DNA from: Escherichia coli
Lineage (GTDB): Bacteria; Pseudomonadota; Gammaproteobacteria; Enterobacterales; Enterobacteriaceae
DNA length: 64,000 nt
Assembly: GCF_046105845.1 (NCBI RefSeq)
Contig: NZ_CP151004.1
Strand: one strand, 5' to 3'
In this document: one piece after another, positions 28,618 through 35,733 of the stretch
Layout of the letters: each line of letters begins with the position of its first letter
Position numbering within the stretch: the stretch's first letter is position 1
Notes under the pieces: model-generated
The model's input: only the letters and a program-made list of their open reading frames with translations
What the model was told of the DNA's origin: nothing
The model's database searches: none
Made by a program: the position numbers and the translations under genes

Positions 28618-28694
<77 letters not shown>

Positions 28695-28816
28695 CTTTCC
28701 CTTAGAGTCCTTTTTCAAATATACTGTGAAGACTTCGGCCTTCGTAGTGGGATTTGAAAAAATCCTTCTGGAAAGTGCTCCAGACCGCAGTTGCGGTTAT
28801 AGGGTTCAGTTATATA

Positions 28817-28842
28817 AAGCCCCGATTTATCGGGGTTTTTTG
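28817..28842 (+). terminator. Intrinsic terminator/attenuator between metY and rimP
   Basis: aaagccccgatttatcggggttttttg; a second weaker hairpin gggctttaggcccttttttt at 28864-28883. Confidence 0.65.
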
Positions 28843-28900
28843 TTATCTGACTACAGAATAACTGGGCTTTAGGCCCTTTTTTTATGTCTTGGGGGTGGGC

Positions 28901-29380: not shown

Positions 29381-30868
<1,488 letters not shown>

Positions 30869-30892
30869 TAAACTGTAGCAGGAAGGAACAGC

Positions 30893-33565
30893 ATGACAGA
30901 TGTAACGATTAAAACGCTGGCCGCAGAGCGACAGACCTCCGTGGAACGCCTGGTACAGCAATTTGCTGATGCAGGTATCCGGAAGTCTGCTGACGACTCT
31001 GTGTCTGCACAAGAGAAACAGACTTTGATTGACCACCTGAATCAGAAAAATTCAGGCCCGGACAAATTGACGCTGCAACGTAAAACACGCAGCACCCTTA
31101 ACATTCCTGGTACCGGTGGAAAAAGCAAATCGGTACAAATCGAAGTCCGCAAGAAACGCACCTTTGTGAAACGCGATCCGCAAGAGGCTGAACGCCTTGC
31201 TGCGGAAGAGCAAGCGCAGCGTGAAGCGGAAGAGCAAGCCCGTCGTGAGGCAGAAGAATCGGCTAAACGCGAGGCGCAACAAAAAGCTGAACGTGAGGCC
31301 GCAGAACAAGCTAAGCGTGAAGCTGCTGAACAAGCGAAACGTGAAGCTGCGGAAAAAGACAAAGTGAGCAATCAACAAGACGATATGACTAAAAACGCCC
31401 AGGCTGAAAAAGCCCGCCGTGAGCAGGAAGCTGCAGAGCTCAAGCGTAAAGCCGAAGAAGAAGCGCGTCGTAAACTCGAAGAAGAAGCACGTCGCGTTGC
31501 TGAAGAAGCACGTCGTATGGCGGAAGAAAACAAATGGACTGATAACGCGGAACCGACTGAAGATTCCAGCGATTATCACGTCACTACTTCTCAACATGCT
31601 CGCCAGGCAGAAGACGAAAGCGATCGTGAAGTCGAAGGCGGCCGTGGCCGTGGTCGTAACGCGAAAGCTGCGCGTCCGAAGAAAGGCAACAAACACGCTG
31701 AATCAAAAGCTGATCGTGAAGAAGCACGCGCAGCAGTACGTGGCGGTAAGGGCGGAAAACGTAAAGGTTCTTCGCTGCAGCAAGGCTTCCAGAAGCCTGC
31801 TCAGGCCGTTAACCGTGACGTTGTGATCGGCGAAACCATCACCGTTGGCGAACTGGCGAACAAGATGGCGGTTAAAGGCTCTCAGGTCATCAAAGCGATG
31901 ATGAAACTGGGCGCAATGGCAACCATCAACCAGGTTATCGATCAGGAAACCGCACAGCTGGTTGCTGAAGAGATGGGCCACAAAGTTATCCTGCGTCGTG
32001 AAAACGAGCTGGAAGAAGCGGTAATGAGCGACCGTGACACGGGTGCAGCGGCTGAACCGCGCGCGCCGGTTGTGACCATCATGGGTCACGTTGACCACGG
32101 TAAAACCTCTCTACTGGACTACATTCGTTCAACGAAAGTGGCCTCTGGCGAAGCGGGCGGCATTACCCAGCACATTGGTGCATACCACGTTGAAACTGAA
32201 AACGGCATGATCACCTTCCTGGACACCCCGGGGCACGCCGCGTTTACTTCAATGCGTGCTCGTGGTGCGCAGGCAACGGACATCGTAGTCCTGGTTGTTG
32301 CTGCCGACGACGGCGTAATGCCGCAGACCATCGAAGCAATCCAGCACGCGAAAGCGGCGCAGGTTCCGGTGGTCGTTGCAGTGAACAAGATCGATAAACC
32401 AGAAGCCGATCCGGATCGCGTTAAGAACGAACTCTCCCAGTACGGCATCCTGCCGGAAGAGTGGGGCGGTGAAAGCCAGTTCGTACATGTGTCTGCGAAA
32501 GCGGGTACTGGTATCGATGAGCTGCTGGACGCTATCCTGCTGCAGGCGGAAGTTCTGGAACTGAAAGCGGTACGTAAAGGCATGGCGAGCGGTGCGGTTA
32601 TCGAATCCTTCCTCGATAAAGGTCGTGGTCCGGTTGCTACCGTTCTGGTACGTGAAGGTACTCTGCACAAGGGCGATATCGTTCTGTGTGGCTTCGAATA
32701 CGGTCGTGTTCGTGCGATGCGTAACGAACTGGGTCAGGAAGTGCTGGAAGCGGGTCCGTCCATTCCGGTGGAAATCCTCGGCCTGTCCGGCGTTCCGGCT
32801 GCGGGTGATGAAGTTACCGTTGTACGTGACGAGAAGAAAGCGCGTGAAGTTGCACTCTATCGTCAGGGTAAATTCCGCGAAGTTAAACTGGCGCGTCAGC
32901 AGAAATCTAAACTCGAGAACATGTTCGCCAACATGACCGAAGGCGAAGTTCACGAAGTGAATATCGTCCTGAAGGCAGACGTACAGGGTTCCGTGGAAGC
33001 TATCTCCGACTCCTTGCTGAAACTGTCTACTGACGAAGTTAAAGTGAAGATCATCGGTTCTGGCGTAGGTGGTATCACCGAAACCGACGCTACCCTGGCT
33101 GCGGCGTCCAACGCCATCCTGGTTGGCTTCAACGTACGTGCTGATGCCTCTGCACGTAAAGTAATTGAAGCGGAAAGCCTGGATCTGCGTTACTACTCCG
33201 TCATCTATAACCTGATCGACGAAGTGAAAGCGGCAATGAGCGGTATGCTGTCTCCGGAACTGAAACAACAGATTATCGGTCTGGCGGAAGTTCGTGACGT
33301 ATTCAAATCACCGAAATTTGGTGCCATCGCAGGTTGTATGGTTACCGAAGGTGTGGTTAAACGTCACAACCCGATCCGCGTTCTGCGCGACAACGTGGTT
33401 ATCTACGAAGGCGAGCTGGAGTCCCTGCGCCGCTTCAAAGATGACGTTAACGAAGTCCGTAACGGTATGGAATGTGGTATCGGCGTTAAGAACTACAACG
33501 ACGTCCGCACTGGTGATGTGATCGAAGTATTCGAAATCATCGAAATCCAACGTACCATCGCTTAA
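30893..33565 (+). CDS. infB: Translation initiation factor IF-2, 890 aa
   Basis: [31 protein letters not shown]; G domain GHVDHGKTS; in-frame internal GTG (31364) and ATG (31385) at codons 158 and 165. Confidence 0.97.
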
Positions 33566-33578
33566 GGTTGTCTGGGTT

Positions 33579-33656
33579 GTAGGCCGGATAAGGCTTTTAC
33601 GCCGCATCCGGCAGCCGTTGCCTGATGCGACGCTCGCGCGTCTTATCAGGCCTACA
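33579..33656. repeat. REP/BIME element (two inverted REP units) in the infB-rbfA spacer
   Basis: gtaggccggataaggcttttacgccgcatccggca and gcctgatgcgacgctcgcgcgtcttatcaggcctaca match the REP palindromic unit consensus. Confidence 0.8.
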
Positions 33657-35121: not shown

Positions 35122-35487
<366 letters not shown>

Positions 35488-35502: not shown

Positions 35503-35531
35503 GAAAAGGGGGCCTGAGTGGCCCCTTTTTT
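35503..35531 (+). terminator. Rho-independent terminator after rpsO
   Basis: aaaagggggcctgagtggccccttttttc. Confidence 0.8.
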
Positions 35532-35733
35532 CAAGCTGACGGCAGCAATTCACTGGAAACTAATGTATTGTTGCTATGAATGATCTTCCGTTGCAGAGGT
35601 TCGCGCGGCTAATGAGAGGCTTTACCCACATTGGGCTGGGTTAGGGTTGTCATTAGTCGCGAGGATGCGCAGAAGATCGGGTATTAACACCAGTGCCGTA
35701 AGGTACTGTCTAAGAAAGAGAAAGGATATTACA

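Follow-up and report, generated by a model that had tools for sequence, protein, structure and literature searches.

The infB gene carries, over a short distance, a stretch that encodes a highly repetitive part of IF2 and, directly after it, in-frame start-type codons. This raises the question of what the repeat is, as DNA and as protein, and whether the codons at its end are the internal initiation sites from which the shorter IF2 isoforms are made. Knowledge of the IF2 isoforms and of the codons at which they start dates from the 1980s and 1990s; that of the repetitive helix dates from 2004. Here, these features were analysed in a stretch of 64,000 nucleotides of Escherichia coli DNA (contig NZ_CP151004.1), referred to as the window. 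A reading of the window's letters and open reading frames, hereafter the sequence-only reading, had proposed an infB repeat of coiled-coil type together with internal starts for the short isoforms.

The infB gene and its octad repeat

The assignment of the gene to infB in that reading is well founded: annotated E. coli infB and the open reading frame of the window match with 100% coverage and up to 99.7% identity, and a whole-length infB match is present in 5,423 of the 5,426 complete E. coli genomes. The Pfam families IF2_N (twice), IF2_assoc, GTP_EFTU, EF-G_D2, IF-2 and GTP_EFTU_D2 were all found in the encoded protein. The translational GTPase core is recognized by PF00009 at residues 393-549 (E 2e-39) and PF11987 at residues 665-779 (E 2e-43), with PF22042 and PF03144 also matched, while the N terminus contains two PF04760 matches, PF08364 at 56-94 and a match of PDB entry 1ND9 to residues 2-50. 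IF2 alpha starts at the ATG at 30893, behind a Shine-Dalgarno sequence, AGGAAGGA, at 30880-30887 with a pairing energy of -6.0 kcal/mol. The order of features around the gene is metY, rimP leader, rimP, nusA, infB, rbfA, truB, S15 leader, rpsO, SraG and pnp, with the metY tRNA-Met at 28618, the rimP leader at 28783 and nusA at 29381-30868. No family was found inside infB in an Rfam scan of the window. The gene and its repeats are located as follows.

30893..33565, plus strand: infB coding sequence (IF2 alpha, 890 aa), from the open reading frame list, the identity to annotated infB and Pfam
31178..31363, plus strand: octad (24-nt / 8-residue) repeat array, codons 96-157, from Tandem Repeats Finder, copy spacing, shuffles, AlphaFold2 and the NMR literature
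31298..31345, plus strand: two peptide-identical AAEQAKRE units with 4 synonymous differences, the site of copy-number variation
31394..31537, plus strand: second charged repeat block, codons 168-215, EEEARRK-type, period 7-8, from repeat statistics and AlphaFold2

In an 8-residue register, codons 96-159 read PQEAERLA/AEEQAQRE/AEEQARRE/AEESAKRE/AQQKAERE/AAEQAKRE/AAEQAKRE/AAEKDKVS, and the reiterated AEQAKREA units described in the sequence-only reading are indeed present. The near-tandem nucleotide repeat is also real, as two approaches agree on it: Tandem Repeats Finder reported period-24 arrays at 31202-31257 and 31244-31358 as well as period 24/21 arrays at 31445-31528, and a repeat search recovered six successive copies spaced 24 nt, starting from 31178. 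Within codons 96-159, the amino-acid identity at a lag of 8 is 0.61, compared with 0.19 +/- 0.05 in residue shuffles (z 8.6), and the nucleotide identity at a lag of 24 is 0.67, compared with 0.365 in codon shuffles (z 7.8). Over codons 100-210, the span indicated by the sequence-only reading, the corresponding z values are 8.9 and 7.7. Far from being insignificant, the repeat thus stands at z about 8 against shuffles. The second block, at codons 168-215, is a weaker repeat (z about 3.2-3.6); it is common to all three isoforms, whereas the octad helix is present only in IF2 alpha.

As A, E, K, R and Q account for 92% of the segment, the repeat could also be seen as mere low-complexity composition in which apparent tandem copies have arisen by chance, and the codon identity between units, which is no higher than the amino acids predict, would agree with such a view. 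However, none of 5000 composition-preserving shuffles equalled the observed identity at lag 8 or at lag 24, and the lag profile of codons 96-159 has sharp peaks at 8 and 16 residues only. In addition, natural variants of the array differ by exact units of 24 or 48 nt, and the same period recurs in related proteins. The shuffle tests in particular refute the chance reading, to which practically no probability is assigned.

The recurrence in other IF2s was observed in 63 of 96 gamma-proteobacterial N-termini, in which the best lag is 8 or 16 with z >4. These belong to Enterobacterales, Vibrionaceae, Aeromonadaceae and one Pasteurellaceae species, while the period was absent from Legionella, Rheinheimera and Arsukibacterium among the same 96 N-termini. 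The octad period is a family trait. Recent duplication of DNA was considered as a source of the array and was ruled out: codons are identical between units at 19 of 34 positions, which is not above the 15.9 +/- 2.6 expected from the shared amino acids (P = 0.16). The DNA repeat is therefore a consequence of an old peptide repeat that is maintained at the protein level. Rare population variants are an exception to this picture of an old array.

Within E. coli, 5,363 of 5,425 genomes (at least 98.9% of them) reach an identity of at least 99% over the region 31100-31600 (501 nt), which excludes any 24-nt insertion or deletion in those genomes, and at most 62 of the 5,425 fall below this identity. 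Variant alleles were found using queries from which one unit had been removed or to which one had been added. At least six genomes carry an allele shorter by 24 nt, about eight carry one longer by 24 nt and at least one carries one longer by 48 nt. All of these length variants are in frame and keep both the GTG and the ATG. The alleles, with example genomes for the variants, are the following.

AAEQAKRE x1: -24 nt, bR_120_Kylling
AAEQAKRE x2: no change, standard allele
AAEQAKRE x3: +24 nt, DETEC-S565
AAEQAKRE x4: +48 nt, OkiPb01695

These copy-number alleles are a mildly new item. Among Enterobacterales species, the segment between V92 and V158 is in most cases either equal in length or 8 residues longer.

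Nature of the repeat-encoded helix

The helical state of residues 98-157 has been shown by others. In NMR work summarised in PMC4611024, these residues form a repetitive hydrophilic helix in IF2, and relaxation data indicate that this helix is more mobile than the N-terminal subdomain and that the domain tumbles independently (PMC4611024). In the window, residues 98-157 comprise 18 A, 18 E, 8 R, 7 Q, 6 K and a single leucine, and strongly hydrophobic residues amount to 1 in 60 (1.7%). Residues of opposite charge are frequently placed at i to i+3 and i to i+4. The octad block contains 25 such pairs, compared with 16.9 +/- 3.2 in shuffles, of which 18 of 2000 reach the observed number, and the second block contains 35, compared with 15.1 +/- 3.0, a number reached in none of 2000 shuffles. 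AlphaFold2, run on a 37-sequence alignment, placed one helix at residues 96-160 (pLDDT 85-91) and another at 166-216, separated by a break at 160-165 (pLDDT <50). This break between the two long predicted helices is thus bracketed by the internal start codons.

The sequence-only reading had described the segment as a coiled coil, and on this point it could not be upheld. A canonical coiled coil, in which IF2 alpha would dimerise or pair with a partner helix, draws on the long unbroken helices of the AlphaFold2 prediction and on the second block, whose period is near 7 and which contains a small number of L, V and M residues. Sequences of such a charged kind are often flagged by coiled-coil predictors. 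The octad block, however, has a period of 8 instead of 7 and the single strongly hydrophobic residue mentioned above, and in a search for a heptad seam in residues 98-157 no register exceeded 6% hydrophobic a/d positions. The mobility of the helix in an independently tumbling domain, as observed by NMR relaxation (PMC4611024), also argues against it, and a coiled coil is considered very unlikely. A charged single helix of the SAH / ER-K-like type would fit this sequence better.

Internal start codons and the surrounding message

The end of the octad array and the break that follows it contain the elements listed below.

31349..31354, plus strand: GCGGAA (codons A153-E154) with a weak Shine-Dalgarno-like GGAA, from the nucleotide alignment
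31350..31394, plus strand: A-rich, low-structure mRNA stretch around both internal starts, with A 0.47-0.53 and GC 0.37-0.40 (predicted)
31364..31366, plus strand: GTG, codon 158 (V), start of IF2 beta (IF2-2), from codon columns and the literature
31385..31387, plus strand: ATG, codon 165 (M), start of IF2 gamma (IF2-3, also beta'), from the codon table and the literature

The coordinates given for both codons in the sequence-only reading are exact, and the codon numbers match the published initiation sites of the IF2 isoforms (PMC3334882, PMC13245402). In-frame codons of the start type are common, with nine ATG, GTG or TTG codons within the first 300 codons of infB. What identifies codons 158 and 165 is therefore their agreement with the published numbering together with the comparative evidence; their presence would not suffice.

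The use of both codons has been shown by others. The changes g474c (codon 158, GUG to GUC) and t494c (codon 165, AUG to ACG) abolish IF2-2 and IF2-3 (PMC3334882), and three IF2 isoforms of 97.3, 79.9 and 78.8 kDa have been described (PMC12297416). The internal site of infB was also recovered by retapamulin ribosome profiling, Ribo-RET (bioRxiv 10.1101/520783), and a homologous proteoform pair has been seen in Salmonella (PMC11005335). The N-terminal proteomics that the sequence-only reading had suggested as a check already exists, as deformylation-assisted (formyl-dependent) N-terminomics detected N-termini at AUG1, GUG158 and AUG165 (PMC13245402). Given the sequence identity, ribosomes in the present organism probably use codons 158 and 165 as well.

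The pairing with the anti-Shine-Dalgarno sequence is weak at GTG158 (-3.5 kcal/mol) and negligible at ATG165 (about -1.9). An equal or better upstream match than that of GTG158 is present at 27% of infB codons, and a strong Shine-Dalgarno sequence was found at neither internal codon, both lying within the background of infB codons. Since the internal sites are not separable from this background, the Shine-Dalgarno scan is not usable as evidence, and the internal starts would not be predictable from sequence alone. The published IF2 beta/gamma system does not require a strong Shine-Dalgarno sequence.

The highest predicted 25-nt unpaired probability of the whole infB gene is at 31370-31394, with codons 160-168 accounting for 9 of the 15 highest-ranking positions in the gene. 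At the protein level, the A-rich stretch at 31350-31394 corresponds to the break that separates the two predicted helices. Across 37 Enterobacterales species, the global maximum of the predicted unpaired probability overlaps an internal start in 29, and in the remaining species that retain the start codon, the internal site ranks in the top 11 of about 1000 positions. Local unpaired probability was used in place of the minimum-free-energy fold. The latter, for 31290-31460, resembles that of shuffles (z -0.35) and revealed no defined stable structure, which is compatible with an open region and is not positive evidence of a defined structure.

For the comparative analysis, a pattern scan of GTDB species genomes yielded 120 infB loci, from which 36 non-E. 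coli Enterobacterales species with a complete IF2 N terminus were aligned. In the codon-158 column, 32 species have GTG, 2 have TTG and the other 2 have a codon that is not a start codon, counts that are not independent events because the compared species are related. Every valine in this column is encoded by GTG (32/32), compared with 23.6% GTG across 18 other valine columns, although codon fixation alone is not unique to codon 158, as V4 (GTA in 34/35) and V85 (GTC in 34/36) are nearly fixed too. The codon-165 column holds ATG in 25 and GTG in 2 of the 36 species, and ATG165 is missing in 9. The minimum of the normalised synonymous-codon entropy over codons 1-354 falls at codons 150-162, with a value of 0.18 compared with a mean of 0.60; at infB's own start the value is 0.26, which is higher than in this internal segment. 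This minimum results from the conservation of GCGGAA-N9-GTG, which is kept in 32 of the 36 other Enterobacterales, without any change at the synonymous positions of GCGGAA, with GGAA itself kept in 34. Together, these patterns point to selection on the start codon and the upstream mRNA beyond the protein sequence.

A start at codon 158 is missing in two lineages, one of them an uncultured Enterobacterales MAG and the other the Nezara symbiont Pantoea sp. Nvir. Both also lack the GGAA, and in accessibility their sites rank only 64th and 88th. That these two symbiont-like lineages have lost the start codon, the GGAA and the accessibility together is mildly new.

The conservation at this site also bears on other origins of the short forms. 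If they were produced by proteolysis or through an internal promoter, the GTG and ATG in frame would be coincidental, an idea that finds some ground in the abundance of in-frame ATG, GTG and TTG codons and in the weak Shine-Dalgarno pairing at the internal starts. It is contradicted by the single-base changes of both codons that abolish the short forms (PMC3334882), by the retapamulin-arrested ribosomes that mark the internal site (bioRxiv 10.1101/520783) and by the detection of short-form N-termini through formyl-dependent N-terminomics (PMC13245402). Also, a scan of 30600-31700 for sigma-70-like promoters gave no match and hence no support for an internal transcript, and GTG158 is the centre of the conservation seen at the codon level and at synonymous sites. 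An origin from a promoter or proteolysis has already been refuted in the literature and is regarded as extremely improbable.

Two minus-strand open reading frames run across the repeat, at 31052-31696 (214 aa) and 31042-31371 (109 aa), and if these antisense frames encoded protein, the conservation could be that of an overlapping gene. In favour of this stands that both frames are open in the window. The reverse complement of a sequence rich in GAA, GCN and CGT is, however, naturally stop-free. In most of the 36 related species the corresponding antisense frames contain 1-8 stop codons, and the synonymous constraint is confined to codons 150-162 instead of spanning the antisense frames. As genes, these frames were rejected: they are not conserved and are by-products of the GAA/GCN/CGT-rich sense codons, and the chance that they explain the conservation is negligible.

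Overall reading and comparison with known systems

The segment is almost certainly the boundary between domain I and domain II of infB in an Escherichia-type genome, consisting of the octad helix and the internal ribosome-binding site for IF2 beta and gamma. In the proposed mechanism, a charged protein repeat of the form (A/E)(A/E)EQAKRE underlies the 24-nt DNA repeats and forms a single long helix that is exposed to solvent and held stable by pairs of charges at i to i+3 and i to i+4. This helix joins the small N-terminal subdomain, which reportedly binds NusA, to the rest of IF2. At the mRNA level, the end of this helix and the short break would double as the internal ribosome-binding site. 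This site would comprise the weak conserved GGAA, a nine-base spacer, GTG158 and, 21 bases on, ATG165, all within the A-rich portion of the message in which structure is lowest. We infer that 30S subunits are brought to GUG158 and AUG165 by the accessibility together with GGAA. Initiation there produces IF2 beta and gamma, which lack the 157 or 164 N-terminal residues.

Domain I of IF2 binds NusA (PMC12297416), and the helix probably acts as a spacer. A more specific reading, which is held tentatively and seems rather doubtful, is that the octad array is a length-calibrated spacer which would set, in IF2 alpha, a tuned distance from the NusA-binding N1 subdomain to the core on the ribosome. 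Its basis is the length of the array, which is near fixed within E. coli and differs between species mostly by 0 or one octad. One octad corresponds to 8 residues, or about 1.2 nm of helix. If the array were such a calibrated spacer, its last octad would also supply the internal ribosome-binding site, so that both functions would reside in the same bases, and the natural alleles with -1, +1 and +2 octads would be ready-made test material.

The observation behind the sequence-only reading is confirmed, and its interpretation is supported except for the term coiled coil; the biology was already known, and the result carries little weight as a discovery. Laursen et al. in 2002 (Genes Cells 7:901, cited in PMC1780047) had probably already described the mRNA requirements that are rederived here. 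The present analysis contributes the coordinates, the repeat statistics, the conservation of codons and of synonymous sites, and the finding that the predicted accessibility is conserved. The comparative signals can serve as a worked example of how an internal start may be recognised without experiments: a fixed GTG/TTG, a minimum of synonymous-codon entropy and a conserved accessibility peak, which all vanish together in two symbiont-like lineages. In addition, the octad alleles could help in studying the link between IF2 alpha and NusA (PMC12297416).

Compared with infB of E. coli K-12, the gene in the window has an equal length (890 codons), the same AUG1, GUG158 and AUG165, and the same operon context. 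Residues 1-336 of its IF2 are identical in protein sequence to those of a K-12 derivative, and the first 1008 nt contain five third-position (synonymous) differences from strain TG1. As a whole, the window shares at most 99.1% identity over 24 kb with any complete RefSeq E. coli genome.

The helix can be compared with the SAH / ER-K domains of myosins, INCENP and the CAF-1 KER, which likewise have a very high content of E, K, R, A and Q (SAH definition, PMC5347031). The IF2 segment is of this type in further respects: opposite charges are densely paired at i to i+3 and i to i+4, a hydrophobic seam is absent, the helix is predicted to be long and unbroken, and it connects functional modules. 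It differs in its period of 8, whereas 7 is typical of designed or eukaryotic SAHs, and, unlike the reference SAHs, the octad block is alanine-rich with a net charge of -5, is bacterial and is reported by NMR to be mobile. Among the papers covered by a text search, none linked IF2 to single alpha-helix domains.

As a gene with an internal ribosome-binding site, infB resembles clpB, mrcB, cheA and speA, which also yield N-terminally nested proteins from such a site, and all of these are picked up by the same methods, Ribo-RET and N-terminomics. Unlike these four, infB has two close internal starts, the first of which is a GUG with only the GGAA as a Shine-Dalgarno-like element, and its internal site is located at the junction of two repeat-encoded helices.

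Copy number of the octad and the place of the lineage

The AAEQAKRE octad of infB (31298-31345), an eight-residue unit of the charged helical segment, shows rare in-frame copy-number variation among complete E. coli genomes (infB loci L001, L002 and L003), in which two copies are usual. The internal-start GTG and ATG are kept in all of these variants.

Copy-number alleles of the AAEQAKRE octad
1 copy, -24 nt: at least 6 genomes among the matches listed
3 copies, +24 nt: about 8 genomes among the matches listed
4 copies, +48 nt: at least 1 genome

The repeat segment is matched at one place in nearly all other genomes and at five separate places in the record of E. coli Nissle 1917 (NZ_CP007799.1), which probably reflects a quirk in how this record was assembled. 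Across 5,426 complete RefSeq E. coli genomes, identity to the 24 kb from 20000 to 44000 never exceeds 99.1% and mostly lies at 95-99%. The lineage of the window therefore lies outside this genome set, and is perhaps Shigella or a sparsely sampled branch of Escherichia. For infB alone, the top identity in complete E. coli genomes is 99.7%.

Other features of the window

Two long antisense ORFs span the repeat, and the wealth of GAA, GCN and CGT among the sense codons explains why their frames are open; the open reading of these frames is not conserved among related species. Rfam matches were also found in the window.

31052-31696, minus: antisense ORF, 214 aa
31042-31371, minus: antisense ORF, 109 aa
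17977-18098: greA leader
24751: tRNA-Leu
28618: tRNA-Met metY
28783-28883: rimP leader
33582-33652, plus: naRNA4 (nucleoid-associated ncRNA 4, REP-type element), 78.7 bits, in the infB-rbfA spacer
35160-35274: S15 leader
35504-35675, minus: SraG

Upstream of the repeat, the IF2_assoc region (PF08364; 31061-31171, residues 57-93) is predicted by AF2 as a long beta-hairpin, with strands at 57-72 and 78-93 and a pLDDT of about 69-87, whereas the part of an NMR summary that treats residues 51-97 describes them as without regular structure (PMC4611024).

The internal start in other species

In the Enterobacterales sample, the codon-158 column is without a start codon in just two loci, L014 (an uncultured Enterobacterales MAG) and L048 (Pantoea sp. 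Nvir, a symbiont of Nezara viridula), and both also have neither the GGAA motif nor the peak of mRNA accessibility. In L048, a GTG is present one codon 3' of this column, and infB carries a 16-residue repeat so regular (z 18.6) that it suggests a recent expansion.

Several Vibrio species (Vibrionaceae; loci L008, L011, L039, L051, L090 and L009) have in common an in-frame ATG within KKDMNAKNA, with TAAGGCTAAGAAAGAC ahead of it, at the equivalent helix break; an ATG in this context is missing from other Vibrio species. Its context KKDMNAKNA resembles DDMTKNAQA at AUG165 of E. coli. This ATG may be a counterpart of the internal start outside the Enterobacterales.
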